Source of the DNA: Tissierella sp. | GTDB lineage: Bacteria > Bacillota > Clostridia > Tissierellales > Tissierellaceae | Length of the DNA: 64,000 bases | Assembly: GCA_012735585.1 (NCBI GenBank) | Contig: JAAYGX010000065.1 | Span: 68 to 64,067, forward strand | Direction: 5' to 3' | In this document: positions 6,787-29,014 of the stretch, one piece after another | Numbering within the stretch: position 1 is the stretch's first letter | How the letters are laid out: the number at the start of each line of letters is the position of its first letter | Made by a program: the position numbers and the translations under genes | Notes under the pieces: generated by a model | What the model saw: only the letters and a program-made list of their open reading frames with translations | Told to the model about the DNA's origin: nothing | Database searches by the model: none

Positions 6787-6800
6787 ATTTTATATCCTCC

Positions 6801-7580
6801 TTAAATAAATTCGTTTAAATTTTTAATTTCTACACCTTCAGCAATTAAGCTTTCCCTAATAAATTTTACAAAGTTTACTGCCTCAGGATTATCCCCATGG
6901 ACACATATGGAATCGGCGATGATATCGATTTCCTGACCATTAATTGCAGTTACTTTACCTTCTAATACCATCTTTTTAATTCTTCTAATGGCTTCTTCTT
7001 GGTCATGAATAACAGCTCCAGGTAGCCTTCTGTTAACTAGAGTTCCATCTGTATTATATGCTCTATCTGCAAAAACCTCTTGTGCAACCCTTAGGCCTTT
7101 TTCCTGTGCTCGTTTTGCAATATAGGTACCACTTAAAGCTAAAAGAATAATATCTTTATCAACATCTAGAATCCCATTTATTACTGCTTCTGCTAATTCA
7201 GGATTTACTGAAGCAGTATTATAAAAGGCGCCATGGAGTTTCATATGTTGGATTTTTACATTATGTGCTGCGGCAAAAGCATTTAAGGCCCCTAGTTGAT
7301 AAATCATATATGCTCGAGCCTCTTTTGGGGTAATATCTAAATTCCTTCTGCCAAATCCCATTAAATCAGGATAACCTGGGTGGGCTCCTATAGCGACACC
7401 ATTACTTACAGCCTGTTTTACTGTTTCATCCATTATCAGAGGATCACCAGCATGCCAACCACAGGCAATATTAACACTACTTACATGTTTAATTACTTCT
7501 TTGTCTAAACCTAAGACATAAGTACCAAAACTTTCGCCAAGATCTGAATTTAAATCAACAATACCTTTCATAAAATCCAC
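6801..7580 (-). CDS. pxpA: 5-oxoprolinase subunit A (LamB/YcsF family)
   Basis: 259 aa with the LamB/YcsF N-terminal motif DLNSDLGESFG. Confidence 0.9.
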   Translation of the reverse strand: MDFMKGIVDLNSDLGESFGTYVLGLDKEVIKHVSSVNIACGWHAGDPLIMDETVKQAVSNGVAIGAHPGYPDLMGFGRRNLDITPKEARAYMIYQLGALNAFAAAHNVKIQHMKLHGAFYNTASVNPELAEAVINGILDVDKDIILLALSGTYIAKRAQEKGLRVAQEVFADRAYNTDGTLVNRRLPGAVIHDQEEAIRRIKKMVLEGKVTAINGQEIDIIADSICVHGDNPEAVNFVKFIRESLIAEGVEIKNLNEFI

Positions 7581-7725
7581 CTCCTAAAATTTGTAAAAGA
7601 CTATATATATTTATAATACTATACAAATGTACGAAGTCCTTGTTTTTTAAAAAAACAATTTGAATGTTTTTCCAATTATTACCCTAATTATGTCCAGTAG
7701 CAAATGTAGAAAGTAGTTTTCTCAT

Positions 7726-7842
7726 TGTCATCCTAAAAGAAGGATCGGATTATATATTTCAATATATTCAAGATCCTTTGCTAACCTTAATGTAAGACTT
7801 AGGAAATACTTTTGGAGTGTAAGGGTAAATCTCGGGATGACA
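7726..7842. repeat. nested-palindrome intergenic repeat, copy 1 (degenerate, carries an internal insertion)
   Basis: Tips are TGTCATCC (7726-) and GGGATGACA (-7842). Inner arms are GAAGGATC and GATCCTTTGC. About 49 nt of extra sequence lies between the inner and outer right arms. Same family as the elements at 36319, 44393 and 60484. Confidence 0.75.
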
Positions 7843-7861
7843 AGTTGGACTTTCACTGGCC

Positions 7862-9070: not shown

Positions 9071-9083
9071 AATTTTTAACCTC

Positions 9084-11006: not shown

Positions 11007-11070
11007 ATATCCGTCCTCCTATTAAATTATTAAAAAAAGGGGGAAGAAACCTCCCCTGAAATTAATTTCT

Positions 11071-13350: not shown

Positions 13351-13453
13351 TAATAGCCTCCTCGATTTCTAAATATTTAGTATTGTTCGTATCCTGACTT
13401 TAGTGTATAATTAAATCGATATATAGTCTAATATTCTTTTTATTATAGAACCT

Positions 13454-13468
13454 ATAGGTAATGCCTAT
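13454..13468. promoter_or_regulatory. LysR-type (T-N11-A) box ATAGGTAATGCCTAT
   Basis: Perfect ATAGG-N5-CCTAT dyad 19 nt upstream of the lysR ATG. It is centred about 64 nt upstream of the TSS predicted from a candidate minus-strand promoter (TTAGAC-16-TATACA, plus-strand coordinates 13404-13431) that would drive the aconitase operon. Confidence 0.5.
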
Positions 13469-13486
13469 ATTAAGGAGAGATTTAGG

Positions 13487-14428
13487 ATGAATGATAGAGA
13501 GTTACTATATGTAAAAACAATAGCCGAAACAAAGAGTATCTCAGAAGCTGCAAAAAAACTCTTTGTTGCACAGCCATCTTTAAGCCAAGCTTTACAAAAA
13601 ATTGAGCAAAGCATAGGAACCCCGTTATTTATCAGGCATCAAGGTGGTATGATGTTAACCCTAGCTGGGGAAAAATATTATAAAGCAGCCAATGAGATTT
13701 TAAATATCTATAACGATTTCACAAATGAGATAACATATATCAATGATTTAAAAAAAGGAAGAGTAACCATAGGCATAACTAATTTTATGGGCTCTTATTT
13801 ATTACCAAAGATAATACCACCATTTAATGATAAATATCCTAATATTGAAATATATATAACGGAAAAGAATTCTAGTATTTTAGAACAGGAATTACTAGAT
13901 TGTACCATTGACTTTGCAATTATGCATAATCATCCAAAGAGGCAGAATAAATCTATATTATATGATGTACTATATAAAGATCCTTTTGTTATAGTAACAA
14001 AAAAGGGATATATACCAGCTACATATAAAAAGAAGAATGAGGATAGCAATAGCTCATACCCTAAAATAGATATTAGACTTTTAAAAGATGAAAAATTCAT
14101 AATGGTAGATAAGGGTAAGGGTATTAGAAATGTTTGTGATATTATTTTAGATACTGCAGGCATTAATCCAAGGATAGCACTGACCACAAAAAGCTATGAA
14201 ACAGCAAGACGATTGGCCAGTACTGGATATGGGATAACCATGATACCTTTAGAGTACATAAAGATTTTTGAGGGCAAATATGACGCAGACTATTACTTTA
14301 TTGATAATGATGAATCTTCTTATTGGAATACTTGCATAGCTACGAATCCAAATATGTATCAATCAAGAGTAGCTAAAGTATTTATTGAGTTAATAAATGT
14401 GTATTTTAAAACAAACCAGCCTATTTAG
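13487..14428 (+). CDS. LysR-family transcriptional regulator
   Basis: N-terminal HTH (YVKTIAETKSISEAAKKLFVAQPSLSQALQKIEQSIGTPLF) and an LysR substrate-binding domain. Divergent from the aconitase genes. Confidence 0.92.
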   Translation: MNDRELLYVKTIAETKSISEAAKKLFVAQPSLSQALQKIEQSIGTPLFIRHQGGMMLTLAGEKYYKAANEILNIYNDFTNEITYINDLKKGRVTIGITNFMGSYLLPKIIPPFNDKYPNIEIYITEKNSSILEQELLDCTIDFAIMHNHPKRQNKSILYDVLYKDPFVIVTKKGYIPATYKKKNEDSNSSYPKIDIRLLKDEKFIMVDKGKGIRNVCDIILDTAGINPRIALTTKSYETARRLASTGYGITMIPLEYIKIFEGKYDADYYFIDNDESSYWNTCIATNPNMYQSRVAKVFIELINVYFKTNQPI

Positions 14429-14450
14429 CTGGTTTGTTTTATTTTATTTG
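14409..14450 (+). terminator. rho-independent terminator of the lysR gene
   Basis: AAACAAACCAGC / GCTGGTTTGTTT 12-bp stem overlapping the stop codon, followed by a T-rich tail. Confidence 0.8.
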
Positions 14451-14466
14451 GTAAAGAACCATGTAT

Positions 14467-14533
14467 ATAGGTTTTGCCTATGGCAGGGATAATAATTTAA
14501 CTATTGGTATAATCAGAAAATTTGCCATATAAT
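14467..14533 (+). promoter_or_regulatory. second LysR-type box (ATAGGTTTTGCCTAT) plus candidate promoters of the prpD-family gene
   Basis: The box at 14467-14481 matches the 13454 box at 13 of 15 positions. Candidate -10 hexamers are TATAAT at 14508-14513 (with an upstream TG) and at 14528-14533 (with TTGGTA 18 nt upstream). Relative to the second hexamer the box is centred near -65. Confidence 0.45.
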
Positions 14534-14643
14534 ACTATATACAAGGATTGTATACAAAACAAATACAAATCGTTTTCACAAGGGACTAGCTAGTTAGAAA
14601 TGCAAAATTTAAGCGTTCATTGCAGTTAACAGGAGGTGAATTC

Positions 14644-16005
14644 ATGAATGAGTTGGAGCAATTATCAAGATTTATTGTAGACTTAAAATTTGAAGACATC
14701 CCATTAGATGTAGTAGAATCTACAAAACTATGTGTGTTGGATTCATATGCAGTTGCTGCAGGAGCGTCAAAAGATAAGATGATTTTAAGTATTGTAAATG
14801 AATATAAGTCTTATTATCCAGATGGTGATGATGTTAGTATATGGGGAATGGATATAAAGATGCCACTGGTACAAGCTGTTTTTCTAAATTCATTAATGGG
14901 ACATAGATTAGAGCTTGATGATGTACATACAAAATCAAAAACTCATATAGGAACTATAGTGGTGCCAACGGCCTTATGCTTGGCTCAATATTTAAAATCA
15001 TCAGGAAAACAATTTCTAGAGGCTGTTCTCTGTGGTTATGAGATTATGTCTAGGATTGGAATCGCATTTGGAGTATCAAGTCATAGAAATAAGGGATGGC
15101 ATGTAACGTCTACTGCTGGAACTTTTGGCGCGGCAGCTACTGCCTCTAAGCTATTGAATCTAAATTTTGAACAAACATTGTATGCCTTGGGAATGGCTGG
15201 GACTCAATCCTTTGGATTATGGGCATTCCTTGAAGATGGATCAAGCTCAAAGATACTACACCCAGCAAGAGCATCTTCTAGTGGTTTAGAAAGTGCCATA
15301 TTATCAAAGTCGGGCATGACAGGTCCTAAGAATATATTAAATGCTAAGGATGGCGGACTTTTAAAAGCTATGTCAGATGAATATGATTTGTCAATGGTTA
15401 CAAATGATTTAGGAACAATCTACGAGATACAAAATGTTGATAATAAACCTTATCCTTGTTGTCGGAGTACACATTGTGCTATAGATTCGGCTATTTACTT
15501 AAAGAAGCAGTACGATATAAATGTAGATTTGATTGATGAAATAGTTGTAGATACTTACTTAGTAGGATATAAGCAATGTGGGTTGACAGATAGTAGTTTG
15601 AATCCTAAGACTCCAGTAGAAGCAAAGTTTTCTATACCATATACTGTAGCAACAGCTTTAATAAGTGGTAATGTTACATTGGAGGATTTTAGTATGGATA
15701 AAATAGGAAATAAAGAAGTCCAAAGTTTATTAAGAAAAGTAAAGGTTAGACCTAAGGATGTTTTTACAAATAGATATCCGAATCATTGGGGTTGTGGGAC
15801 AAAAATAAAAATGAAGAATGAAGATGAGTTTCGAGTAGAGATACAAGACGCACTAGGTAGTGTATATAATCCAATCTCTAAAAAAGAAATTAGAAACAAA
15901 GTAATACCGCTATTAGAAGTAGTATCTTCTGATACCAATATGGATGTAATAGACACTATATTAGCAATTGAAAAGTTAGACAACTTATCTAACATGAATC
16001 TTTAG
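14644..16005 (+). CDS. MmgE/PrpD-family protein (2-methylcitrate dehydratase / cis-aconitate decarboxylase family)
   Basis: About 453 aa with typical family sequence (FIVDLKFEDIP..., ELDDVH..., GWHVTSTAGTFGAAA). I prefer the ATG at 14644, 7 nt after AGGAGG, over the tracked TTG at 14620. Confidence 0.88.
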   Translation: MNELEQLSRFIVDLKFEDIPLDVVESTKLCVLDSYAVAAGASKDKMILSIVNEYKSYYPDGDDVSIWGMDIKMPLVQAVFLNSLMGHRLELDDVHTKSKTHIGTIVVPTALCLAQYLKSSGKQFLEAVLCGYEIMSRIGIAFGVSSHRNKGWHVTSTAGTFGAAATASKLLNLNFEQTLYALGMAGTQSFGLWAFLEDGSSSKILHPARASSSGLESAILSKSGMTGPKNILNAKDGGLLKAMSDEYDLSMVTNDLGTIYEIQNVDNKPYPCCRSTHCAIDSAIYLKKQYDINVDLIDEIVVDTYLVGYKQCGLTDSSLNPKTPVEAKFSIPYTVATALISGNVTLEDFSMDKIGNKEVQSLLRKVKVRPKDVFTNRYPNHWGCGTKIKMKNEDEFRVEIQDALGSVYNPISKKEIRNKVIPLLEVVSSDTNMDVIDTILAIEKLDNLSNMNL

Positions 16006-16374
16006 TATAGGAATAATAAATTGATTGAGATAGTATTACACTGTGGAAAACGATTGCGAAATTGTACTATTTCCGTATCTATTTAGCACGTGGTTCTAAA
16101 AATTACAGAAAGGTATCAAAAATATTTGTAGCCAAAATTAAATAGAATTTATTGTAAAGGGGCTGAGCTATGCAACGGGGTTAGTGAAGTACAATTAGAG
16201 GGGGAAATAGAAGTATTAAATATTTAAATGTAGTTGTTGGATTCATAGACTTATGTTGTAAGGGCTACAAAGTTTTAGAAAATAACTAAAATGTTTTAGT
16301 GGTAAAGGATTCCAATGAAATATGTATTTTGAAAATGAAGTAAATAATACAGTAAAATCAAAGGAGATGTAATA

Positions 16375-17361
16375 ATGAGAAAGAAGATTATGTTACTTAG
16401 CTTAACTTTAGTTTTAGTATTTGCTTTATTAGTCGGATGTGGTTCAGAACCTGCTAATAAAGATGTAGCGGATGGCGAATGGACTTTTGAAAGACCAATT
16501 GAGTTTATTATTCCATGGGGTCCAGGCAGTGGTACTGATACTACAATTAGAGCATGGGCACCATTGATGGAAAAAGAATTAGGGGTTACTATCAATATCA
16601 ATAACGTAGAAGGTGCAGGTGGGGTAAAAGGCGCTGAGTTCCATGCAAACCAACCAGCAGATGGATATACTTTCTCAATGTATACTCCTTCTCATGTTAT
16701 AGCTGCAGTAGATGGAACTACAAATTTTGATATTTTAAACGATACAGTGCATGTAGTTAGATTAGTTCAAGATTCAAATATTGTATTAGCTGGAAAACAC
16801 GTACCATATAACAATATGGGAGAAATGATTGAATATGTAAAAGCTAACCCAGGTAAAGCTCCTACAATAGGAATGATGTCCATTAACGGTATGGATGGTG
16901 CTTCTGCAAAACAATTATTTGAAGCAGCAGGAATAGAAGTAAACTTTATACCTTATGCAAGTGGCGCTGAAGTTAACGCAGCAGTAATGGGTGGACATAC
17001 TGACATGGTAATGACAAGTCCATTTGATGGAAAAGCATATATCGAATCTGGAGATATGAAGGGTATCGTATTATTAGCTGAAGAAAGATCAACTGCTTTA
17101 CCAGATGTAGAATGTACAGGTGAACTAGGTTATGAAGCATATATAGGACCATGGAGAGGTATTGTAGCTAAAAAAGGTACACCTCAAGGAGCTATTGATG
17201 CAATAGAAGCAGCTGCTATAAAAGTAAATGAAATGCCTGAATGGAACGATTGGAAAGTAACTGTAGGTTTAAATGATAGACCAGGTTTCGCTACTTCAGA
17301 AGAATTCAAAGATTTATGGTTCCAATACTATGAAGATATGAAGGAACTTTTAGCTCCATAG
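16375..17361 (+). CDS. tctC: tripartite tricarboxylate transporter substrate-binding lipoprotein (TctC/Bug family)
   Basis: Signal peptide with lipobox LLVGC, and the Bug-family motif PWGPGSGTDT. Followed by tctB and tctA. Confidence 0.9.
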   Translation: MRKKIMLLSLTLVLVFALLVGCGSEPANKDVADGEWTFERPIEFIIPWGPGSGTDTTIRAWAPLMEKELGVTININNVEGAGGVKGAEFHANQPADGYTFSMYTPSHVIAAVDGTTNFDILNDTVHVVRLVQDSNIVLAGKHVPYNNMGEMIEYVKANPGKAPTIGMMSINGMDGASAKQLFEAAGIEVNFIPYASGAEVNAAVMGGHTDMVMTSPFDGKAYIESGDMKGIVLLAEERSTALPDVECTGELGYEAYIGPWRGIVAKKGTPQGAIDAIEAAAIKVNEMPEWNDWKVTVGLNDRPGFATSEEFKDLWFQYYEDMKELLAP

Positions 17362-17526
17362 ATAGAATTACAGACTTAAAAAATTAAGATGTATTTTTAC
17401 ATAGGACTAGCCTTCTTTGAATCACAGGTATGTTTTATCTAAGGAAGCTAGTCCTAGTAATTAAATTTAAAAATGTTTATCAAAATTATAAATAGATTTA
17501 TAAATTATTAAAAAGGAGTGAAATAA

Positions 17527-18024
17527 ATGGCTCTAGAATTATTATTTAATGGGGGACTATTAGTATTTTTCATTTATTGTTTCTTCTATATTGGCGGTAT
17601 CGGACATGATCCAGCAACAGGAATATTAGATGCGGCAGAATGGCCCAGATTATTATTAGGTTTATTGATTGTTTTTATAGCTATAAATATGGCAAAGGTG
17701 TATAAAAACAGACAAAAAGGGGAGACCTTCAAGATTGATTTTAACATTAAAAAAATTGTAACAAGTAAATTATTTATAGGTAGTGTATTATTGTTAATTT
17801 ATTCTTTTAGCCTAGATTACTTAGGATTTGTATTTAGCTCAATTATTTTTTTCATGGTATATTCAAGGCTTTTAGGAGAAAAGAGAATAAAGATCTTAGT
17901 ATTATCTTCATTAGTTAGTGTAGCTATTTTATATGTACTATTTAACAGTTTGTTAGGAATAATGCTTCCTAGAGGAGTTGGAGCATTTAGAAACTTTGCG
18001 TTATTCCTTGAATCACTGATATAA
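17527..18024 (+). CDS. tctB: tripartite tricarboxylate transporter small membrane subunit (TctB)
   Basis: 165 aa protein with four hydrophobic segments, located between tctC and tctA. Confidence 0.75.
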   Translation: MALELLFNGGLLVFFIYCFFYIGGIGHDPATGILDAAEWPRLLLGLLIVFIAINMAKVYKNRQKGETFKIDFNIKKIVTSKLFIGSVLLLIYSFSLDYLGFVFSSIIFFMVYSRLLGEKRIKILVLSSLVSVAILYVLFNSLLGIMLPRGVGAFRNFALFLESLI

Positions 18025-18036
18025 GGAGGTAGCAAA

Positions 18037-19545
18037 ATGGAATTATTAATGATGGGCTTAGAGGTAGTATTTGTTCCAAGTACTCTTGTATTAATATTTT
18101 TCGGTACTGTATTAGGAGTTATATTTGGTGCTCTTCCTGGAGTGAGTGCATCAATGGCAGTAGTACTAGGTTTGACTTTTACATATGGTTTGGACCCAGT
18201 AACTTCAATAGCATTTCTAGTAGCAGTATATTGTGCGGCTATAACAGGTGGAGGAATCACTGCTATTTTGTTTAAAATACCAGGAACACCTTCAAGTGCA
18301 CCAACTACATTTGACGGTCATCCAATGGCGCAAAATGGACAGCCAATGAAGGCGTTAAGTATTTCACTGTTTTGTTCCGCATTAGGTGGTATTGCAGCAG
18401 CTATAGCAATGTTTTTAATCAGTCCACAGCTTGCTACAGCGGCGTTAAAGTTTGGTCCTTCTGAATTATTTGCTATATCCTTCATGGGATTATCAGTGCT
18501 AACAGCATTAGATGAAGGGAATGTACTTAAAACATTAATATCCGGTTTACTGGGATTATGGTTAGCAACTGTTGGAATGGATCCTATTGGAGGATTTGCA
18601 CGATTTACATGGGGTAATTCAACCTTATTATCAGGTATTGAAATGATTCCTGTAATGATAGGTATGTTTGCTATTACTCAAGTACTAAAAGAAACCAAAG
18701 AAAGAAGTAAAATAGAAGAATTAGATGAAGCTGGACCTAAAAATAATACAGTAGAAGATAAAGTTATATCTATGAAAGAGTTATGGAATATAAAGGGAAC
18801 TATTGCTAGATCTGGTGTGATGGGTACTATAGTAGGTATACTTCCAGGAGCAGGAGCTACGATAGCTTCATTTTTAAGTTATACCTCAGAAGTAAAACTA
18901 TCTAAGCATCCTGAAACTTTTGGTAAAGGTGAGCCTAGAGGAATTGCTGCATCTGAAACAGCTAATAACGCGGCGACAGGTGGTTCTATGGTTCCATTGC
19001 TTTCATTAGGTATTCCTGGTGGTAATGCTGCAGCTATTATGATGTCTGCATTGGTTATGAAAGGTGTTCAAATGGGACCCCTACTACTTAAAACTCAACC
19101 TCAATATTTAAGTAGTGTGTTTGTATCCATGATAGTTACTAATATATTTATGGTTGTTGTATCCTTTGCTGTAGCTAAAGTGTTTGGTAAGATACTTTCT
19201 ATTCCTTACAGTATACTTGGAACTGTTATTATTCTATTGGCTACTATAGGAAGCTTTGCATTACAAAACAATACGGGAAATGTATTTTTAATGATAATAG
19301 CTGGTATTATAGGATTTGCTTTCTCAAAGTTTGGATTTAATAATGCAGCTTTAATTCTAGGATTGGTATTAGGAGAAATGATCGAGTCCAACTTAAGAAG
19401 AGCAATAATGATTGAGCAAGGTAATGTAATAAACGTATTTACTAAGCCAATTACAGCGGTACTTATGGTAATCAGTTTAATATCACTATTATGGCCAGTA
19501 GTTAAACCACTAATATCTAAGAATAAGGCTAAGATAGCTGGTTAG
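18037..19545 (+). CDS. tctA: tripartite tricarboxylate transporter large permease (TctA)
   Basis: 502 aa polytopic protein with TctA-typical segments (GALPGVSASMAV, GILPGAGATIASFLSY, SLGIPGG). Confidence 0.9.
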   Translation: MELLMMGLEVVFVPSTLVLIFFGTVLGVIFGALPGVSASMAVVLGLTFTYGLDPVTSIAFLVAVYCAAITGGGITAILFKIPGTPSSAPTTFDGHPMAQNGQPMKALSISLFCSALGGIAAAIAMFLISPQLATAALKFGPSELFAISFMGLSVLTALDEGNVLKTLISGLLGLWLATVGMDPIGGFARFTWGNSTLLSGIEMIPVMIGMFAITQVLKETKERSKIEELDEAGPKNNTVEDKVISMKELWNIKGTIARSGVMGTIVGILPGAGATIASFLSYTSEVKLSKHPETFGKGEPRGIAASETANNAATGGSMVPLLSLGIPGGNAAAIMMSALVMKGVQMGPLLLKTQPQYLSSVFVSMIVTNIFMVVVSFAVAKVFGKILSIPYSILGTVIILLATIGSFALQNNTGNVFLMIIAGIIGFAFSKFGFNNAALILGLVLGEMIESNLRRAIMIEQGNVINVFTKPITAVLMVISLISLLWPVVKPLISKNKAKIAG

Positions 19546-19658: not shown

Positions 19659-20702
19659 ATGGAAAACTTTTTATTAACGATAGTTGTAGCTCTAATTGTT
19701 GGTTATATATTCCTAAAACTTAAGGTACCAGGTGCTATGATGGTAGGAAGTATTATAGCAGTATCCATCTTGAACATAAGCACAGGATTGGCATATATGC
19801 CAGCGGTAAGTAAAACCATAGCACAGATTATAGCCGGTTCATTTATTGCTATTGGATTAGAAAAAAGCGATTTAAAAAGGCTTAAACATATTTATAAGCC
19901 AGCAACAGTTCTTCTGGTGGGAATGTTAATCTTAAATATTGTTTTAGGACTTATCATTCATTATACTAGTCATCTAGATTTGGTTACGTCTCTGATGAGT
20001 GCTATACCAGGAGGAATTAGTGAAGTACCTATTATAAGTGAAGAGATGGGAGCGGATTCTTCTACTGTTGCAGTTATGCAATTTACAAGACTAATATTTG
20101 GTGTGGGTCTATTTCCATTAATAATTAATAAGGTATCAAAGCTAAGGCATTTGAAAGATGGAGAAACAGAAGAAGTGTATAAAAGGTCGATAACCCGTAA
20201 TGATAGTATTCAAAATCTGCTCCTTACTATAATGGTAGCATCCACTTTTGGTATATTAGGCAGTAAAACAGGCATACCTTCAGCTACATTGGTTTTTTCC
20301 ATGATAAGTACTATAGTATTTAAATTGTCTACCAACAAGGGGTCTATGCCTAGGTGGATGAGATGGATAGCTCAACTATTATCAGGTGCCTATATTGGTA
20401 GTAGCATTGGCATGAATGAAGTAAGTCAGATGAGATATCTTATATGGCCAGGGTTTTTGTTAGTATCAGGCTATTTAGTAGCTTGCTTCTTAATAGGCAA
20501 TATACTACATAAGAAATATAATATGTCTTTAGCAGAAGCTATGTTAGCAGCTACACCTGCTGGTGCCTCTGATATGGCGTTGATATCTGCGGATATTGGA
20601 ATAGAAAGTGCAGATGTGGTGGTCCTACAGGTTATAAGAATGGTCACAGTGATATCTGTGTTTCCACAGGTATTGATGTTTATTCTTGAAGTCCTAGGAT
20701 AA
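19659..20702 (+). CDS. AbrB-duplication family membrane protein (putative transporter; not the AbrB transition-state regulator)
   Basis: 347 aa polytopic protein with two internally repeated halves (PGAMMVGSII... and IPSATLVFSMI...), each containing a P(G/A)G(I/A)S(E/D) element. Confidence 0.7.
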   Translation: MENFLLTIVVALIVGYIFLKLKVPGAMMVGSIIAVSILNISTGLAYMPAVSKTIAQIIAGSFIAIGLEKSDLKRLKHIYKPATVLLVGMLILNIVLGLIIHYTSHLDLVTSLMSAIPGGISEVPIISEEMGADSSTVAVMQFTRLIFGVGLFPLIINKVSKLRHLKDGETEEVYKRSITRNDSIQNLLLTIMVASTFGILGSKTGIPSATLVFSMISTIVFKLSTNKGSMPRWMRWIAQLLSGAYIGSSIGMNEVSQMRYLIWPGFLLVSGYLVACFLIGNILHKKYNMSLAEAMLAATPAGASDMALISADIGIESADVVVLQVIRMVTVISVFPQVLMFILEVLG

Positions 20703-20725
20703 TAAAAATATATTGTACTGAGGTT

Positions 20726-21769
20726 ATGTATATGTATAAAAGAGATATTAATATAAGAACTATTAACTTAGGGCGTAATTCTGAAAAGCAGAAAATAATA
20801 ATGTTTTTAAAGGACCATGACCTTTTATTCGAAGAAGATATCGACTATACAATTGGTGTATATCAGGAGGACTCACTTATTGGGACAGGTTCATTATCGG
20901 GAAATGTACTAAAATGTATAGCTGTTAATGGAGAATTTCAAGGAGAAGGCATCTTTAATAAGATAATTTCACAATTGATAAATACCCAGTACCAAAGAGG
21001 CAATATGCATTTATTTGTCTTTACTGGGCCAGAAAATAAAAAATTCTTCGAAGATACAGGATTTAGAGAAATATCATCAGTAGATGACAAAGTATCCCTT
21101 TTGGAAAATGATCCAAAGGGAATAGAAAAGTACGTAGAAAATCTTAAGCGTAGTAAGAAGGAAGGGGCTATTATATCTAGTATAGTTATGAACTGTAACC
21201 CCTTTACCTTAGGACATCAATATTTAATTGAAAAAGCTGCAAAAAGTAGTGATATAGTGCATATCTTTCTTGTATGGGAAGATCGTTCTTTATTTCCTAA
21301 TGATATTAGGTTAAAACTTTTGAGAGAAGGAACTAGCCATTTAGATAATGTAATAATCCATAAAGGAGAGAATTATATTATATCTAATTCAACTTTTCCC
21401 TCTTATTTTCTAAAGGAAGAAAATACGGTAGTTAAAACCCACGCTACTTTGGATATAAAATTATTTGTAGAGTATATTTGTCCAGTACTTGGTATTAACA
21501 AAAGGTTTGTGGGTAGAGAGCCTAATGATCCAGTTACAAATGAATACAACAAGGCAATTATGAAACTGCTTCCGATATATAATATTCAAGTAGAAGAGAT
21601 CCCGAGACTTACGGTAGGTGAAGGGGTTATTAGTGCCACGAAGGTTAGAAAATCAATTAAAGAAGGCAATATGGAGTCATTGAAACAGTTAGTTCCAATG
21701 ACAACTTATAAATATATAGTATCAGATGATGCAAAACCAGTTATTGATAAAATTAGAAAAGATATGTAA
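20726..21769 (+). CDS. citC: [citrate (pro-3S)-lyase] ligase
   Basis: 347 aa with an N-terminal acetyltransferase-like domain and a cytidylyltransferase-like core (NCNPFTLGHQYLIEKAA). Immediately upstream of citDEF. Confidence 0.9.
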   Translation: MYMYKRDINIRTINLGRNSEKQKIIMFLKDHDLLFEEDIDYTIGVYQEDSLIGTGSLSGNVLKCIAVNGEFQGEGIFNKIISQLINTQYQRGNMHLFVFTGPENKKFFEDTGFREISSVDDKVSLLENDPKGIEKYVENLKRSKKEGAIISSIVMNCNPFTLGHQYLIEKAAKSSDIVHIFLVWEDRSLFPNDIRLKLLREGTSHLDNVIIHKGENYIISNSTFPSYFLKEENTVVKTHATLDIKLFVEYICPVLGINKRFVGREPNDPVTNEYNKAIMKLLPIYNIQVEEIPRLTVGEGVISATKVRKSIKEGNMESLKQLVPMTTYKYIVSDDAKPVIDKIRKDM

Positions 21770-21790
21770 AAATGTCAAGGAGGTAATCAA

Positions 21791-22081
21791 ATGGAGCTGA
21801 AGAAAATAGGAATAGCTGGAACTGTAGAATCCAGTGATATAAGTATAATAATTGAGCCTACAGACAAGGGCGGAATTGAGATTAGTTTGCAAAGCGCAGT
21901 AATGAAGCAATTTGGCAGACAAATTAAAGAAGTAATAGAAGAGACAATGAAGAGTAAAGGTGTAAAAAATGCTACTGTTAGGGCTGTAGATAAAGGAGCA
22001 GTGGACTTTGTAATAAAGTCAAGAACTCTTACGGCGCTTTATAGGTCCGCAGATATAGATGAATACAAATGGGGAGAGTGA
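21791..22081 (+). CDS. citD: citrate lyase acyl carrier protein (gamma subunit)
   Basis: 96 aa with the prosthetic-group serine motif AGTVESSD near the N-terminus. Confidence 0.9.
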   Translation: MELKKIGIAGTVESSDISIIIEPTDKGGIEISLQSAVMKQFGRQIKEVIEETMKSKGVKNATVRAVDKGAVDFVIKSRTLTALYRSADIDEYKWGE

Positions 22082-22086
22082 TATAA

Positions 22087-22983
22087 ATGGTGAAATTACG
22101 AAGGACTATGATGTATGTAACTGGAAATAATCCAGCAAATATAATGGATGCACATTTATATGGTTCGGATTCCATTATGTTTGACTTAGAAGATTCCGTA
22201 TCAATAAAAGAAAAGGATGCTGCTAGATTTTTAGTATATAATGCTTTAACGACTATGGATTACGGTGATACTGAGACAGTTGTTAGAATTAATGGTTTAG
22301 ATACGCCATTTGGTAGGGACGATTTGGAAGCTATGGTAAGAGCACAACCAAATGTTATAAGATTACCTAAAACAGAAACCCCGGAGGATGTTTTAGAGGT
22401 GGAACGAATTATCCAAGAGATAGAAGAGAAGGTGGGTATAGAGGTAGGTACTACTAAGATGATGGCTGCCATAGAAGGGCCTCTTGGTGCTATGAACGCA
22501 TATGAGATAGCAAAATCAAGTAAAAGATTAATAGGAATTGCAATTGGTGCTGAGGATTTTGTAACTAGTATAAAGACTACAAGATCTAGTGAAGGAATAG
22601 AGATATTGGCAGCTAGAAGTCAAATTGTATTAGCGGCTAGGGCAGCAGGGATATATGCTTTGGATACAGTATTTTCCGACATAAATGATGATGAAGGATT
22701 TATTAACGAGACTAAGTTAATAAAACAATTAGGTTTTGATGGTAAGTCGGTTATCCATCCTAGACAAGTAAGTTTAGCCCATGAAGTATATACTCCTACT
22801 GATAAAGAGATAAAAAATGCTTTAAGGGTATTAGATGCTATAGAGGAAGCGGAAAGAAGTGGCTCAGGGGTTATAGCTTTAGATGGAAAGATGATAGATG
22901 GGCCAATTGTTGATAGGGCATATAGAGTATTAGAATTAGCTAAGGCAACTGGAGTATATAGAGAGGAGGATCAAAATGAATAA
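22087..22983 (+). CDS. citE: citrate lyase beta subunit (citryl-CoA lyase)
   Basis: 298 aa HpcH/CitE-family sequence (MFDLEDSV, AAIEGPLG, GAEDF). Confidence 0.9.
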   Translation: MVKLRRTMMYVTGNNPANIMDAHLYGSDSIMFDLEDSVSIKEKDAARFLVYNALTTMDYGDTETVVRINGLDTPFGRDDLEAMVRAQPNVIRLPKTETPEDVLEVERIIQEIEEKVGIEVGTTKMMAAIEGPLGAMNAYEIAKSSKRLIGIAIGAEDFVTSIKTTRSSEGIEILAARSQIVLAARAAGIYALDTVFSDINDDEGFINETKLIKQLGFDGKSVIHPRQVSLAHEVYTPTDKEIKNALRVLDAIEEAERSGSGVIALDGKMIDGPIVDRAYRVLELAKATGVYREEDQNE

Positions 22984-24517
22984 AAATGGAGTAGGTAGGG
23001 AAATACCGGCATATATAGAAGGTGTAGGAGAGCTTAAGGCTTATGAAAGTCCTTTTAGTATAATTCCAGAGGGAAATAAAGTAGGTCCAAAGCTAAAAAG
23101 ACCATTACCACATAAAAATAAATTAGTAGATTCTTTAGAAGAAGCTGTGAAAGCAGTAGGGTTAAAAGATGGGATGACCATATCCTTTCACCACCATTTT
23201 AGAAGTGGTGATTATATTGTAAATATGGTGTTGGATGTTATAGCACACCTAGGAATCAAGAATATTAAAGTTGCAGCAAGTTCTTTATCCACATGTCATG
23301 GACCATTGATTGAACATATTAAAAATGGTGTAATAACTGGAATTGAAACCAGTGGATTAAGAGATCCTCTAGGCACTGCTATTTCAGAAGGAATCTTAAA
23401 AAAACCTGTTATTATAAGATCCCATGGTGGAAGGGCAAGAGCTGTTGAGTCAGGAGAGTTAAAAATTGATGTTGCGTTTTTAGGAGCTCCAGCTAGTGAT
23501 GAATATGGGAATGCAAATGGGTTTTCAGGACCTTCAGCTTGTGGTTCATTAGGATATGCACTTGTTGATGCCAATTATGCTGATCATGTAGTATTAATCA
23601 CTGATAATCTAGTGGAATATCCTTGTTTACCGGCAAGTATTAATCAGACTCAAGTGGATTATATAGTTGAAGTGGAATCTATTGGAGATCCAAAAGGCAT
23701 AGTATCAGGTGCTATTAGAAGTACTACAAATCCAAAGGATCTATTAATAGCGGAAAATGCGTTGAAGGTGATTATGGCATCAGGATATTTTAAAAATGGA
23801 TTTTCATATCAAACAGGTGCAGCGGGAGCTTCACTAGCAGTAACTTCCCTTATGAAAGAAAAGATGATTGAGCAAAACATAAAAGGTAGTTTTGGACTTG
23901 GAGGAATCACTGCTCAGTTAGTAGACCTTCTAGAAGAAGGATTGATGGAAGGATTATTTGATACTCAATGTTTTGATTTAGTAGCAGCAGAATCCTTAGG
24001 AAAAAACCCTAAACATTTTGAAGTAGACGCAGGATTTTATGCCAATCCACACAATGCAGGTTGTGCAGTAAATAAATTGGATATTGTCCTTCTAGGAGCT
24101 TTAGAAATAGATACAGATTTCAATGTAAATGTTATATCTGGTTCAGATGGAGTTATAAGTCAGGCTTCAGGTGGACATTCTGATACGGCAGCCGGTGCAA
24201 ATATTTCTATCATATTAGCCCCACTAATTAGAGGTAGAATTCCAATTGTGGTGGATAAGGTGACCACTGTTGTAACACCAGGAGAAACAATAGATGTGGT
24301 TGTAACGGATTATGGTATAGCTGTAAATCCACTTAGGAAAGATTTAATTGAAAGATTCAAAAAAGAAAATTTAAAGATATATACCATAGAGGAATTACAA
24401 AAAATAGCGGAAAATATAACGGGAAAACCAGATACTATTGAATTTGGTGATAGGATTGTAGGTGTGGTTCAATATAGAGATGGTTCGGTTATAGACGTAA
24501 TCAGACAGGTAAAATAA
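22976..24517 (+). CDS. citF: citrate lyase alpha subunit (citrate CoA-transferase)
   Basis: 513 aa CitF-type sequence (ISFHHHFRSGD...). Overlaps citE by 8 nt. Confidence 0.9.
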   Translation: MNKNGVGREIPAYIEGVGELKAYESPFSIIPEGNKVGPKLKRPLPHKNKLVDSLEEAVKAVGLKDGMTISFHHHFRSGDYIVNMVLDVIAHLGIKNIKVAASSLSTCHGPLIEHIKNGVITGIETSGLRDPLGTAISEGILKKPVIIRSHGGRARAVESGELKIDVAFLGAPASDEYGNANGFSGPSACGSLGYALVDANYADHVVLITDNLVEYPCLPASINQTQVDYIVEVESIGDPKGIVSGAIRSTTNPKDLLIAENALKVIMASGYFKNGFSYQTGAAGASLAVTSLMKEKMIEQNIKGSFGLGGITAQLVDLLEEGLMEGLFDTQCFDLVAAESLGKNPKHFEVDAGFYANPHNAGCAVNKLDIVLLGALEIDTDFNVNVISGSDGVISQASGGHSDTAAGANISIILAPLIRGRIPIVVDKVTTVVTPGETIDVVVTDYGIAVNPLRKDLIERFKKENLKIYTIEELQKIAENITGKPDTIEFGDRIVGVVQYRDGSVIDVIRQVK

Positions 24518-24533
24518 GAAAGATAACACCATA

Positions 24534-25229
24534 GTGAGCAATATTACAGTAAAGGAAAGGGATAAGATGAGCGAGTTAAGAATTGGGATGCCTATAAGCC
24601 AAGAAGTATATCAAAAAATAAAATATGATATTCTGGAGAATAATTTAAAACCGGGAGAAAAATTAATAGAAGAGAATATTGCTACTGAATTAAATGTAAG
24701 TAGGACCCCAGTTAGAGAAGCATTAAAGCAATTGGATCAGGATGGTTTAGTGACTTATTATCCAAGAAGGGGATCTGTAGTAAGTGAGATATCCTTAGAG
24801 GATGCAAAGGAGCTTTATGAAGTCAGAGAGGTTCTAGAAGGATTAGCAATCAAACATATATGTATGAATATCAATCGAAAGGATCTAAAAAAACTTGGAG
24901 ATATCGTATCTAATATGGAAAAGGCAATGGCCAAAGATGATCATGAATATATGACAGAACTCCACAAGGTATGGAGTGAAACCACCTTCATGTTAATTCA
25001 AAATGAATTATTAAAAAGCTACTTAACATCTATAATGGATAATCTAGGTAGACTTAGGAAGATTTCACTATATAATCCTGTCCATAACTATGATGCTTTT
25101 AAAGAAACTAAGGATATATATAATGCTATAGTAGAGAATCAACCAGGGGAATGTGAAATTTTAGCCAGATTGCATGTGAGGAATGCAAGGAAAAGGTTTG
25201 AAGGAAATATAGGCCATATAGGAGAGTAA
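24534..25229 (+). CDS. GntR-family transcriptional regulator (FCD type)
   Basis: wHTH region (IEENIATELNVSRTPVREALKQLDQDGLV) plus an FCD-like C-terminal domain. An alternative start ATG at 24567 is preceded by AAGGAAAGGG. Confidence 0.85.
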   Translation: MSNITVKERDKMSELRIGMPISQEVYQKIKYDILENNLKPGEKLIEENIATELNVSRTPVREALKQLDQDGLVTYYPRRGSVVSEISLEDAKELYEVREVLEGLAIKHICMNINRKDLKKLGDIVSNMEKAMAKDDHEYMTELHKVWSETTFMLIQNELLKSYLTSIMDNLGRLRKISLYNPVHNYDAFKETKDIYNAIVENQPGECEILARLHVRNARKRFEGNIGHIGE

Positions 25230-25290
25230 TAGTGCTTAAATATAAATTATGAAAGATTTTATCAAGCTATAAATCAAAATGAGGAGGCCA

Positions 25291-26835
25291 ATGATGAAGA
25301 ATAATATAACAAAACTTCTCAATCAAAACAGTAAAGTACAACAAGGGGATAAAGAGAAGATTGAAAAACAACATGCATCTGGTAAGTTATCTGCAAGAGA
25401 GAGAATAGATCTTTTACTAGATGATGATAGCTTCATAGAAGTGGACAAGTTCTCTGGAAATGGTGGTATGGAAGAGAAGCTAGGATCAGATGAAGTATCA
25501 GCAGATAGCATAGTTGGTGGATACGGGACCGTAGATGGTAGGCTAGTATTTGTCTATGCACAAGACTTTACTGTAGCCGGAGGTTCAGTAGGGGAAAAAC
25601 ATGCTGAAAAGATTGTAAATATTCAAAAGATGGCATTGAAAATGGGTGCACCTATAATTAGTCTTATGGATTCAAAAGGTGGGAAAGTTGAAGAAGGTAT
25701 AGATACCATATCTGGATATGGAAAGATTTTACACCAGAATACAATTTCTTCAGGGGTTATTCCACAGATATCAATTGTTGTAGGACCATGTGCCGGAGGA
25801 ATTTCCTTCTCAACAGCCTTGTCGGACTTTACATTTATGGTAGATAAGACTAGTTCTATGTTTATAAATGGACCACAAGTAATAAAATCACAAACTAATG
25901 AGGACATAAGTCAAGAAGAATTAGGTGGGGCTATGGTTAATAATAGTGTCAGTGGTGTAGCTCATTTTCTAGATTATTCTGAAGAAGAGTGTATTAATAG
26001 GATAAGGGAATTATTATCATTTTTACCTTCGAATAACTTAGAAAATGCACCATCTTATGATTCTGTAGATAACATAAATAGGGTAGAAGATTTTTTAAAT
26101 CAGGTTCTTCCTGAAAACATATACGGTCCTTATGATATGAAAGAGATTGTAAAACTTATTGCAGATGAAGGATATTTCTTTGAGATTCAGCCTTATTATG
26201 CGGAAAATATTATAACTGGATATATAAGATTAAATGGTAGAACCATAGGTGTAGTAGCTAATCAACCAAGTATAGAAGAAGGGCTTCTAAGTATAAATGC
26301 AGTTAATAAGGCAGCAAGGTTTATTAGAAACTGTGATGCCTTTAATATCCCATTACTTAACTTAGTAGATGTGGCAGGTTTTGTACCTACTAAATCAGAG
26401 GAACATGGTGGAATTATTAGGCATGGAGCTAAGATGATTTATGGATATAGTGAAGCAACAGTTCCAAAGATTACTTTAGTAATTAGAAAGGCTTATGGTA
26501 GCGCTTACTTATCTATGTGTAGTAAAGAGTTAGGTGCGGACCAAGTATTTGCATGGCCAGGATCTGAAATTTCTGTTTTAGATCCAGAGGCTGCAGCAAA
26601 TATTATTTTCAAAGATGAGATAGCTAACTCAGCAGACCCTATATTGACTAGGAAAGAGAAGATTGAGGAATACAAAGCTTTAGAAGCCAATCCTTATAAT
26701 GCAGCTAAAAAAGGATATATAGACGATATAATACTTCCAAGTATTACAAGACCAAGACTGATATCTGCTTTTGATATGCTAGAAACTAAGAGAGAGACTA
26801 GACCGGGGAAAAAACATGGTAATTTACCAGTATAA
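25291..26835 (+). CDS. acyl-CoA carboxyltransferase, alpha subunit of a Na+-translocating decarboxylase (MmdA / transcarboxylase 12S-like)
   Basis: About 514 aa carboxyl-transferase fold (GKLSARERIDLLLD, VYAQDFTVAGGSVG, GIIRHGAKM). The true start is probably ATG 25291 or 25294, downstream of AGGAGG (25282-25287), not the tracked 25279. Confidence 0.88.
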   Translation: MMKNNITKLLNQNSKVQQGDKEKIEKQHASGKLSARERIDLLLDDDSFIEVDKFSGNGGMEEKLGSDEVSADSIVGGYGTVDGRLVFVYAQDFTVAGGSVGEKHAEKIVNIQKMALKMGAPIISLMDSKGGKVEEGIDTISGYGKILHQNTISSGVIPQISIVVGPCAGGISFSTALSDFTFMVDKTSSMFINGPQVIKSQTNEDISQEELGGAMVNNSVSGVAHFLDYSEEECINRIRELLSFLPSNNLENAPSYDSVDNINRVEDFLNQVLPENIYGPYDMKEIVKLIADEGYFFEIQPYYAENIITGYIRLNGRTIGVVANQPSIEEGLLSINAVNKAARFIRNCDAFNIPLLNLVDVAGFVPTKSEEHGGIIRHGAKMIYGYSEATVPKITLVIRKAYGSAYLSMCSKELGADQVFAWPGSEISVLDPEAAANIIFKDEIANSADPILTRKEKIEEYKALEANPYNAAKKGYIDDIILPSITRPRLISAFDMLETKRETRPGKKHGNLPV

Positions 26836-26850
26836 ATGAGGTGAATGTAA

Positions 26851-27222
26851 ATGGGTGAACAAATTTCATTATTAGATGCCTTGCTAGTTACACTAGTTAG
26901 TATGGTGGCAGTATTTGTAATATTAATACTAATATCATCATTAATTAATGGATTGAGGATGATTAGTGGAGATAAAAAGAAAACAGAAGAGGCCGTGGCA
27001 GAAGTAAAACCAGCCAAAAATACAGTAGAGATAGTGCCAGTGCCAGAAGTTGTCAAAGAGGATAATGAGGAATTAGTTGCAGTAATTGCATCGGTGGTCG
27101 CTATGCACTTAGGGCTAAATATTCCAGATATTAATATAAAAAGCATCAAAAGGGTTCAACAAAATAGTAATCCTTGGTCATCAACATCAAAAGCAGAACA
27201 ATTAAGGGGAAGACTTTACTAA
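26851..27222 (+). CDS. OadG/MmdD-family small membrane subunit of the Na+-translocating decarboxylase
   Basis: 123 aa with a single N-terminal TM helix (LVTLVSMVAVFVILILISSLI) and a C-terminal LVAVIASVVAMHLG segment typical of OadG-like proteins. Confidence 0.8.
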   Translation: MGEQISLLDALLVTLVSMVAVFVILILISSLINGLRMISGDKKKTEEAVAEVKPAKNTVEIVPVPEVVKEDNEELVAVIASVVAMHLGLNIPDINIKSIKRVQQNSNPWSSTSKAEQLRGRLY

Positions 27223-27245
27223 ATTAATTCTTTGGAGGTAATGAA

Positions 27246-27674
27246 ATGAGGAAATTTTTAATAAATGTATATGGTAATTCTTATGAAGTAGAAGTAGAAG
27301 AAATAAACGCTGAAGGAACAAGTCCTAGACCAGTAACTACTTCAACTCTAGCACCTAGGCCAACGCCAACTGTACAAGCTCCAGTAGTTCAGCCTGTTGT
27401 ATCCAAACCCGTTGTTGAAACACCGCAAGCTCAAAAATCCGAAGTGGCTGTCTCGGAGGGGCAGGAGGTAGTAGAGGCTCCAATGCCAGGAAATATATGG
27501 AAAGTACTAGTATCAGAAGGGGATATGGTTAAGTCTGGAGATGTTTTATTAATACTTGAGGCTATGAAAATGGAAAATGAAATATTAGCTCCAAGGGATG
27601 GAAAGGTAGTTAGCGTTACAACATCAGAAGGTTCAAATGTAAATACAGGAGAGAAGTTAGTAGTAATCGAATAA
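27246..27674 (+). CDS. biotin carboxyl carrier subunit of the decarboxylase (MmdC/GcdC / 1.3S-like)
   Basis: 142 aa with a Pro/Ala/Val-rich linker and the biotinylation motif [10 protein letters not shown]. Confidence 0.9.
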
Positions 27675-27700
27675 CTTCGTTGAGAAAGGAAGGAAATTGA

Positions 27701-28900
27701 ATGTTTGTAGATATATTATCTGATTTTTGGGCAAGTACTGGATTTGCGATTATGGAGTATGGTCAGCTCATTATGCTTCTTATATCCTTCGGTTTACTAT
27801 ATCTAGCTCTAGCAAAAGGTTTTGAACCTTTATTACTTATCCCTATAGCATTTGGGATGCTTCTGGCTAACTTACCAGGAGCAGACTTAATGAAGGAACC
27901 TATAGTAGAGATTATACAGGATCCAAATACAGGAGAGCTGGTCTCTCAAACTAAGGAAGTTGGGGGTTTACTATATTATCTATATCAGGGAGTAAAATTA
28001 GGTATATACCCTCCGCTTATTTTCTTAGGTGTAGGAGCAATGACGGATTTTGGACCATTAATTGCCAATCCAAAGAGTATATTATTAGGAGCAGCTGCTC
28101 AATTTGGAATTTTTGCAACCTTTATTGGAGCAATTTTGCTTAATTCATCAGGATTAGTAGCATTTACTGCAAAAGAAGCGGCATCAATAGCAATAATAGG
28201 TGGAGCAGATGGACCAACGGCATTATACCTTACTTCAAAATTAGCACCTCAGTTATTAGGACCAATAGCCGTGGCAGCCTACTCTTATATGGCACTAGTC
28301 CCTATTATACAGCCACCAATAATGAAGGCTCTAACCACTAAGGAAGAAAGAGAAATTGTAATGAATCAATTGAGAGTTGTTTCAAAGAAAGAAAAGGTTA
28401 TATTTCCTATTATGGTTACAGTAGTAGTCTCATTATTACTACCATCAGCGGCATCATTAGTAGGTATGTTGATGCTAGGAAACCTATTTAAAGAATCACT
28501 ACTTGCTGATCGATTATCTGAAACAGCACAAAATGAACTTATGAATATAGTAACAATATTCCTTGGAATAACTGTAGGAGCTACTGCAAATGCACAAACT
28601 TTCTTATCCACAAAAACTTTGAGTATAATTGCACTTGGACTAGTAGCATTCTCTATAGGAACTGCATCTGGAGTAATATTTGGTAAGATTATGTGTAAAC
28701 TATCAGGTGGAAAGATAAATCCACTAATAGGTTCAGCTGGTGTATCAGCAGTGCCGATGGCAGCAAGGGTTTCACAAAAAGTTGGACAAGAAGCAAATCC
28801 AAGAAATTTTTTACTTATGCATGCTATGGGACCAAATGTAGCAGGAGTTATAGGTTCTGCAATAGCCGCAGGAATGTTGCTTAATTTCTTTGGTGGTTAA
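27701..28900 (+). CDS. Na+-translocating decarboxylase beta subunit (OadB/MmdB/GcdB family)
   Basis: 399 aa polytopic protein with family-typical segments ([24 protein letters not shown]). Confidence 0.92.
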
Positions 28901-28965: not shown

Positions 28966-29014
28966 CAAAAACTTGAGTCTCTAAGTCAACATAGATGACT
29001 CAAGTTTTTGTTTT
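28966..29014 (+). terminator. rho-independent terminator ending the long cit-mmd gene string
   Basis: ACTTGAGTC (28971-28979) pairs with GACTCAAGT (28997-29005), followed by TTTTGTTTT. Confidence 0.8.

Follow-up and report, generated by a model that had tools for sequence, protein, structure and literature searches.

Four separate biotin-dependent Na+ pumps are customarily distinguished, the decarboxylases of oxaloacetate, methylmalonyl-CoA, glutaconyl-CoA and malonate, and each is assigned a carboxyltransferase of its own. The locus described here is a string of ten genes (19659–28900, plus strand) in which the genes for citrate lyase are followed by those of such a pump. It is located in a stretch of 64,000 nucleotides from Tissierella sp. 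(assembly GCA_012735585.1, contig JAAYGX010000065.1, positions 68 to 64,067), which is called the window below. On balance, we favour the reading that the region is a citrate-fermentation island whose pump works as an oxaloacetate decarboxylase via a separate 5S-type OadA, the alpha subunit of the pump block serving as a scaffold or being re-purposed.

The citrate locus of Enterococcus faecalis has the order oadHDB-citCDEFX-oadA-citMG and includes the GntR/FCD activator CitO (PMC3198936, PMC4746285, PMC6193673). The window resembles it in that cit genes are clustered with a putative Na+-pump oxaloacetate decarboxylase, that OadA and the carrier (OadD in E. faecalis) are separate and that a GntR/FCD regulator is present in the locus. 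Unlike in E. faecalis, the biotin carboxyl carrier protein (BCCP), the anchor and the pump of the window appear to come from a methylmalonyl-CoA decarboxylase (MMD) block which still holds a 12S-type alpha gene. In addition, the window OadA gene is 21.5 kb distant and grouped with an RraA-like gene and another GntR gene, citG and citX are located on another contig and the transporter is TctCBA.

The Na+-translocating methylmalonyl-CoA decarboxylase is encoded by mmdADCB in Propionigenium modestum and by mmdADECB in Veillonella parvula (cited in PMC7145394). As was noticed in a preliminary description of the window, the alpha-delta-BCCP-beta order of the string is the MmdADCB order; the window alpha also belongs to the PccB/MmdA/12S group. 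However, mutase and epimerase are missing from the window genome, alpha is changed at 24 of 137 invariant positions and cit genes stand upstream. In Klebsiella, Vibrio and Salmonella, OadGAB adjoins citS and citCDEFG (PMC7274780, PMC7145394). The window would share the logic of citrate lyase combined with a Na+-pumping oxaloacetate decarboxylase: its beta subunit keeps the residues essential in OadB, and its OadA scores 498 bits against V. cholerae OadA (2nx9). In contrast to OadGAB, the window OadA has no fused biotin domain, an extra 12S-type gene is present and the genes are split over two operons.

The transcarboxylase of Propionibacterium consists of 12S, 5S and 1.3S subunits, the 12S hexamer being the core on which the other subunits assemble. 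All three subunit types are encoded in the window, and the window BCCP has a short N-terminal segment, which we take to be typical of 1.3S/MmdC-type carriers. Unlike transcarboxylase, the window system includes a membrane beta subunit and an anchor, its 12S motifs are altered and the methylmalonyl pathway is missing. Oxaloacetate decarboxylases of the E. faecalis type, with separate OadA and carrier, are already known, as are MMD operons; a literature search gave no account of a citrate locus whose pump derives from an MMD and still includes a diverged 12S subunit.

Layout of the citrate lyase and pump genes

Genes were identified using Pfam and NCBIfam profile searches, with curated equivalog cut-offs for CitC, CitD, CitE and CitF. 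All ten open reading frames (ORFs) of the string are located on the plus strand, and their coordinates, identities and spacing agree with the preliminary description. The string and its flanking elements are as follows:

16375–19545, plus strand: tctC, tctB and tctA, tripartite tricarboxylate transporter (Pfam TctC, TctB, TctA)
19659–20702, plus strand: AbrB-duplication membrane protein (AbrBdup), possible permease (TIGR03082, 204 bits; PF05145)
20726–21769, plus strand: citC, [citrate (pro-3S)-lyase] ligase (TIGR00124, 359 bits vs. cut-off 262)
21791–22081, plus strand: citD, citrate lyase acyl carrier protein (TIGR01608, 119 bits vs. cut-off 63.5)
22087–22983, plus strand: citE, citrate lyase beta subunit (TIGR01588, 473 bits vs. 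cut-off 443)
22976–24517, plus strand: citF, citrate lyase alpha subunit (TIGR01584, 830 bits vs. cut-off 501)
24534–25229, plus strand: GntR/FCD-family regulator, likely start ATG 24567 (PF00392 and PF07729)
25279–26835, plus strand: alpha, 12S/MmdA-derived carboxyltransferase, likely start 25291 or 25294 (PF01039, 543 bits; TIGR01117, 717 bits)
26851–27222, plus strand: delta/gamma membrane anchor subunit with an N-terminal hydrophobic helix (PF04277 OAD_gamma; NF047902 MmdD)
27246–27674, plus strand: BCCP of the MmdC/1.3S type with an Ala/Pro-rich linker (PF00364, EAMKME motif)
27701–28900, plus strand: beta, predicted carboxybiotin decarboxylase and Na+ pump (OAD_beta; TIGR01109, 525 bits vs. 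cut-off 191)
about 28966–29005, plus strand: predicted intrinsic terminator closing the string, a strong hairpin with a T-run, identical in L001

Here, L001 is the nearest relative, an uncultured Tissierella metagenome-assembled genome (MAG), the alpha of which is 92% identical and which shows full synteny from tctC to accA. The gaps along the string are 23, 21, 5, −8, 16, 49, 15, 23 and 26 nt, with a single overlap of 8 nt. The gap between gntR and alpha is 49 nt from the start given by the ORF caller and 61 nt from the better start at 25291; the latter, already used in the preliminary description, is preferred because the ATG at 25279 overlaps a GGAGG ribosome-binding site. For gntR, ATG 24567 is favoured because its ribosome-binding site is conserved in L001.

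The terminator scan found no convincing terminator inside the string, in line with the earlier statement that there is none before 28966, and no stable hairpin was found in the gntR–alpha spacer (z = 0.48). We infer that the string is co-transcribed. Its true start is probably at tctCBA, three genes further upstream, since these genes are on the same strand, only a weak hairpin without a T-run is present at the tctCBA/AbrBdup junction, and the same order recurs in L001 and in the genome G024. TctCBA is the probable citrate uptake system. Another hairpin conserved with L001 was found 3' of tctC at 17395–17450 (TAGGACTAGCCTTC ... GAAGCTAGTCCTA); it could set the ratio of the binding protein to the membrane subunits.

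The string citCDEF is a true, citrate-specific lyase, because it sits with citrate-type transporters, whereas a second cit-like cluster on contig C57, 37–51% identical to that of the string, sits with genes for glutamate mutase, methylaspartate ammonia-lyase and mesaconase. The C57 cluster was rejected as a real citrate lyase, since the methylaspartate-pathway context points to a citramalate lyase. This region (C57:27295–37054; L103 6286–16054, minus strand) contains a complete methylaspartate pathway for glutamate fermentation, namely GlmS, MutL, GlmE, methylaspartate ammonia-lyase, a two-subunit mesaconase, a CitDEF-like citramalate lyase and a CitC-like ligase. The genes citG (C140:7418–8230) and citX (C140:8278–8724), both above cut-off, are located outside the string and presumably serve both lyases. 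They directly follow the gene of a 1174-aa pyruvate:ferredoxin oxidoreductase (C140:3441–8724, L104), and a CitX-like fragment of 55 aa was found at C129:3972–4130. The other five genomes of the genus contain only citramalate-type CitF and no true citrate lyase, and this genome alone among the six has alpha and beta.

The 5S OadA and the position of the pump

Only two carboxyltransferases that could feed the pump are encoded in the genome, namely the string alpha and the 5S OadA at 2357–3754. The pump parts are single-copy, with one 12S-type alpha, one beta and one 5S OadA. Two BCCPs were found, the string BCCP and AccB, the former being the sole decarboxylase-type carrier; a third candidate on contig C31 was rejected as a lipoyl E2 protein. 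Only three Carboxyl_trans genes (alpha, accD and accA) are present in the genome, and no GcdA was found among them. The 5S OadA scores 453 bits against the P. shermanii 5S structure and keeps the RDAHQS, IKDM and HSH motifs. It is 465 aa long, ends after the association region and contains no fused biotin domain, so its carrier must be a separate BCCP, as is OadD in E. faecalis. The beta subunit retains the Salmonella OadB residues E40, D203, Y229, R304, N311, N373, G377, S382, N412 and S419, which are essential in that protein (PMC7274780).

A biotin-less 5S OadA (75–89% identical) was found in about 41 of the 61 genomes of the family. In six genomes with a canonical alpha, it is an orphan: its neighbours are housekeeping genes, and neither a BCCP nor a pump gene lies within 8 kb. 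In the Clostridia MAGs L011, L014 and L015, in contrast to these orphans, OadA stands last in a five-gene alpha-gamma-BCCP-beta-OadA cluster; altogether, OadA shares a gene run with alpha, BCCP and beta in G009, L011, L014, L015, L056 and L067. There are hints from gene order that the five-gene cluster is older than the orphan OadA. Next to the orphan of G026 (L113 5138–11750) are genes for a D-Ala-D-Ala carboxypeptidase and a pseudouridine synthase, and these two also flank the L014 cluster (7320–15138).

A comparison within the family indicated that the cit locus is modular. The genome G024 contains PrpD ... TctCBA-AbrBdup-citCDEF-GntR-CitX, which is the left half of the window without the pump, and G003 has the order 2HCT-citCDEF-citG-citX-GntR. 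In G030 and G042, a dedicated BCCP-OadB-OadA set is located directly upstream of citDEF, so that the place beside cit is an oxaloacetate-decarboxylase position. The pump block was found at this locus in two family members of a genus other than that of the window. In G029, RraA-GntR-OadA is followed by the pxp genes and then by alpha-delta-BCCP-beta-(D-Glu cyclase)-2HCT-citCDEF-GntR-BirA. In G009, the order is RraA-GntR-OadA-alpha-delta-BCCP-beta-AbrBdup, with CitMHS-citCDEF-GntR within the next 10 kb. The transporter at the equivalent place is TctCBA in the window, 2HCT in G029 and CitMHS in G009, and AbrBdup orthologues adjoin citC in G024 and beta in G009. Because the three modules cluster in three orders with three transporter families, this recurrent synteny makes a strong case for a functional link between citrate lyase and the pump, with citrate as the substrate. 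The link proposed in the preliminary description thus found support in the arrangements of the window and L001, G029 and G009, and citCDEF also adjoins an alpha gene in the genome G033.

Two copies of delta-BCCP-beta flank RraA-GntR-OadA-alpha in G009:C3 (L095 6998–9018; L095 13616 to L100 1627). The two beta copies score identically, and the pump region is separated from the cit genes by a transposase-like gene.

On the favoured reading, for which we infer the partnership of the subunits, the substrate and the role of alpha, citrate would be taken up by TctCBA, possibly aided by AbrBdup. CitDEF, activated by CitC and with its prosthetic group supplied via CitG and CitX, would split citrate into acetate and oxaloacetate. 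The 5S OadA (2357–3754) would move the carboxyl group of oxaloacetate onto the biotin of the BCCP encoded at 27246, and beta would decarboxylate the carboxybiotin and export Na+, with delta anchoring the soluble parts to beta; the pyruvate would pass to pyruvate:ferredoxin oxidoreductase. The pump block would be an MMD operon from which the neighbouring mutase, MeaB and epimerase genes were lost and which became attached to the cit module. Its alpha, left with no supply of methylmalonyl-CoA, would have been kept as a hexameric core for the 1.3S-type BCCP and the 5S subunit, or as an altered carboxyltransferase.

Ancestry and divergence of the alpha subunit

The alpha subunit scored 606 bits against 1vrg and 528 bits against the 12S structure 1on3, in agreement with its earlier assignment as MmdA/12S-like; a GcdA-type alpha was rejected, as only 89 bits were obtained against glutaconyl-CoA decarboxylase A. 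Its score of 717 with the MmdA model TIGR01117 is below the cut-off of 998.8, but those of canonical mutase-linked relatives (892–927) are below it as well, and the diverged clade described below scores 629–717. About 40 of the closest alpha homologues, from four phyla, have genes for the mutase large subunit, the B12-binding subunit, MeaB and the epimerase directly upstream, which is the standard succinate-to-propionate module. When alpha was placed phylogenetically, as the preliminary description had suggested, it nested inside the mutase-linked, canonical Tissierellaceae alphas, so that by its place in the tree it is a descendant of a mutase-linked Tissierellaceae MmdA. Among 5.8 billion proteins, the L001 protein was the only relative with more than 70% identity, and for the alpha of G029, a single relative (67%) stood above a canonical background of about 63%.

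The mutase domain PF01642 is present in 35 of the 61 genomes of the family but in none of the six of the genus, this genome (97% complete) included. When the Paratissierella proteins (mutase, B12 subunit, MeaB and epimerase) were compared with the genome by tblastn, the only match was one of 30% to a glyoxalase-like protein. An assembly gap was rejected as the cause and the loss of methylmalonyl-CoA mutase is considered real, because the mutase is missing throughout the genus (six of six genomes).

Together with the alphas of L001, G029 and G009, that of the window makes up one fast-evolving clade with 100/100 support and a stem of 0.31. Identity between lineages of this clade is 59–67%, compared with 79–90% for canonical alphas of different genera. 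To describe the changes, 137 columns that are at least 95% invariant across about 85 canonical homologues were used. In the window alpha, 24 of them are changed, and 17–31% are changed across the clade, against a canonical median of 0 and maximum of 12%. The divergence of the clade in ordinary variable columns (0.43–0.52) is not unusual compared with canonical alphas (up to 0.51). A long-branch artefact is unlikely, since invariant columns are lost selectively and derived residues are shared.

The changes affect core motifs, namely DSGGARIQEG (DSKGGKVEEG in the window), CAGGAVYSPA (CAGGISFSTA), GGAY (GSAY) and VMGPEGA (VLDPEAA). In PccB, G182-G183 and G419-A420 form two oxyanion holes (bioRxiv 10.1101/2024.04.30.591959). 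The GG of hole 1 is kept in the window alpha, where the next residues AVYSP are replaced with ISFST; in G009 and P0123, the second Gly of this hole is altered as well (CAGG to CGGT). The residue corresponding to G419 is Ser in the window and G029 and Asn in G009 and P0123. In total, 57 invariant positions are changed in the clade. The changes are lineage-specific at 46 of these positions, and new residues are shared at six (G77S, A135G, Q138E, T197N, L387I, A432S).

These results bear on the view that the two halves of the string are unrelated and adjoin by chance, the cit genes being one operon and the pump genes an ordinary methylmalonyl-CoA decarboxylase operon driven from a promoter of its own. 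The pump block is self-contained elsewhere, and the closest alpha homologues other than the L001 protein are annotated as MmdA. A sigma-70-like site (TAGACT-16-TATAAT) was also found at 25049–25076, within the 3' end of gntR. However, the promoter scan of the string was uninformative, with 50 sites compared with 70.6 in shuffled sequence; because fewer sites were found than in shuffled sequence, this one carries no weight. Given that mutase, MeaB and epimerase are absent from the genome and the genus, that cit, pump and 5S OadA are co-located in three arrangements and that alpha is far from ordinary, unrelated neighbours are very improbable.

Alternatively, the 12S-type alpha, the 5S OadA and the BCCP could form a transcarboxylase, which would pass the carboxyl group of oxaloacetate to acetyl-CoA or propionyl-CoA, giving malonyl-CoA or methylmalonyl-CoA without ATP, while beta disposes of the excess. 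Each of the three subunit types has a counterpart, with scores of 528 and 453 bits against the P. shermanii 12S and 5S structures, and alpha-OadA pairs occur beside the mutase in the Desulfobacterales loci L040, L043 and L045. The genes accBCDA directly follow the string in the window and L001, but this adjacency was not seen in G029 or G009. A related carboxyl shuttle from oxaloacetate to propionyl-CoA was proposed in a Geobacter genome paper (PMC2996986). However, the window genome has no consumer of methylmalonyl-CoA, as both epimerase and mutase are absent, the changed parts of alpha are its active-site motifs and transfer to an acyl-CoA would have to compete with the pump of the complex for carboxybiotin. 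We regard the transcarboxylase as improbable.

A further explanation, close to an idea of the preliminary description, is that alpha still works as a carboxyltransferase but on a different acyl thioester, such as malonyl-CoA or another carboxy-acyl-CoA. The pump would then have two inputs, oxaloacetate via the 5S OadA and a CoA ester via alpha. The alpha ORF is intact in every lineage (at least five) and is not decaying. The ratio of nonsynonymous to synonymous substitution rates (dN/dS) relative to L001 is 0.10 for alpha, similar to those of CitC and TctC (0.033 for CitF and beta), so alpha is still under purifying selection. The six positions fixed to the same new residue clade-wide and the retained oxyanion hole 1 of the window also suit a new substrate. 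In an independent lineage, L050/L056/L067, with an alpha-BCCP-beta-OadA operon and no mutase, alpha shows partly identical replacements (GGAY to GSAY; YSP to FST or FTT, as in AVYSP to AAFTT). Its sister group, L011/L014/L015, has the same operon with canonical motifs. However, most of the changes are lineage-specific (46 of 57), a pattern better explained by a relaxation of constraint on the ancestral active site than by one new specificity, and in G009 and P0123, even the hole-1 Gly is altered. Moreover, no gene for making or activating a substrate was found in or near the string, and decarboxylation of malonyl-CoA would form a futile cycle with the adjacent accBCDA. A changed substrate therefore appears unlikely. 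In the preliminary description, the pump was proposed to be fed either from a CoA ester derived from citrate or oxaloacetate or by more than one carboxyltransferase, including the 5S gene at 2357. The second option is the better supported, in view of the single beta, the single decarboxylase-type BCCP, the single biotin-less OadA and the shared gene runs. For the first, no route was found, since mutase, MeaB and epimerase are absent and the active-site motifs of alpha are changed.

Several observations weigh against an oxaloacetate decarboxylase with a scaffold alpha. The 5S OadA gene of the window belongs to a separate operon 21.5 kb from the pump and has its own regulator, and the putative scaffold role is drawn by analogy with the assembly of transcarboxylase. 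Given the retained GG of oxyanion hole 1 and the dN/dS of 0.10, alpha may still be catalytic, and the fact that replacements of G by S, Y by F and P by T arose in parallel in two lineages could mean a specific new function rather than a scaffold. The genomes G002, G025, G004 and G047 have no detectable mutase yet keep canonical alpha motifs, so that mutase loss alone does not predict divergence of alpha. G002 and G025 are also devoid of 5S OadA and true citF, which would leave alpha as their only carboxyltransferase. Adjacency of cit and alpha is not always accompanied by divergence either, as in G033 citCDEF is followed by a canonical alpha (82–90% identical to other canonical alphas) in a genome with the mutase.

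An alpha-BCCP-beta block was observed in G002 and G025 (L097, L099), G004 (L098) and G047 (L096). In G033 (L105, G033:C164, 75–4922), citF and alpha are spaced by 120 nt with no GntR gene between them, and the contig ends inside alpha.

Regulators, surrounding genes and biological meaning

The GntR gene in the middle of the string was earlier read as a sign of internal regulation. However, its orthologue (GntR2) follows citF, directly or after citG/citX, in G024, G003, G005, G009 and G029, with no pump after it. Because this gene ends the cit module in five other genomes, a special meaning of its mid-string position finds no support. Judging from gene order, the cit module normally ends with the GntR/FCD gene, and the place of this gene in the string is a by-product of the pump block having been joined downstream. 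By its domains and locus position, the regulator appears to parallel CitO of E. faecalis; a comparison with curated NCBIfam models gave no match above cut-off.

Inverted repeats of the form TTGTA-N(0-6)-TACAA were found at four sites in the window, compared with 1.27 expected, and three of them are in promoter regions of the island. None was found upstream of AbrBdup or alpha. These candidate operators may define one regulon across the island. Together with the neighbouring genes and other elements, they are listed below:

920–930: candidate site upstream of the RraA gene
961–3754, plus strand: RraA-like gene, second GntR/FCD regulator and biotin-less 5S OadA (Pfam)
3805–7580, minus strand: pxpCB, Nramp-like gene and pxpA, a 5-oxoprolinase-type cluster
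7862–13350, minus strand: IDH-like gene and two aconitase genes
13487–16005, plus strand: LysR and PrpD genes
14548–14557: candidate site upstream of prpD
16256–16270, plus strand: TTGTA-N5-TACAA inverted repeat upstream of tctC, candidate GntR-type operator, largely conserved in L001
29097–32687, plus strand: accBCDA, directly 3' of the string, also in L001
41586–41723, plus strand: c-di-AMP riboswitch (RF00379, 107 bits)
54714–54843, minus strand: c-di-AMP riboswitch (RF00379, 95 bits)
58816–58831: further candidate site

The window is thus a tricarboxylate and biotin-enzyme island. An Rfam scan found nothing in the string, the two riboswitches being located elsewhere in the window. In the window as well as in G029 and G009 (L094 12306–16083; L095 3003–6777), a pxpA-Nramp-like-pxpB-pxpC cluster accompanies the genes for OadA and the pump; it has no evident link to citrate metabolism.

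A tentative generalisation is that MMD pumps were converted more than once to oxaloacetate decarboxylases, at least in the Tissierellaceae clade and in the Oscillospiraceae-like L050/L056/L067, by recruiting an orphan biotin-less 5S OadA while the 12S subunit was kept as a non-catalytic or re-purposed core. Since the orphan 5S OadA is widespread in the family, also in genomes with a canonical MMD, the sharing of a single pump by two carboxyltransferases may be the original condition and the general one.

The locus and its relatives suggest that one carboxyltransferase can be exchanged for another on the membrane and carrier module and that a 12S subunit can outlast its pathway. If the conversion took place, the product would be a membrane-bound, transcarboxylase-like assembly of 12S, 1.3S-type BCCP, 5S, delta and beta, which is biochemically undescribed. 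The canonical alpha, the alpha in an OadA operon and the diverged alpha would then form a natural series from a catalytic to a structural or re-purposed subunit. In addition, the label "methylmalonyl-CoA decarboxylase" would be wrong in mutase-less anaerobes, and predictions of the propionate pathway in gut and digester metagenomes would be affected.

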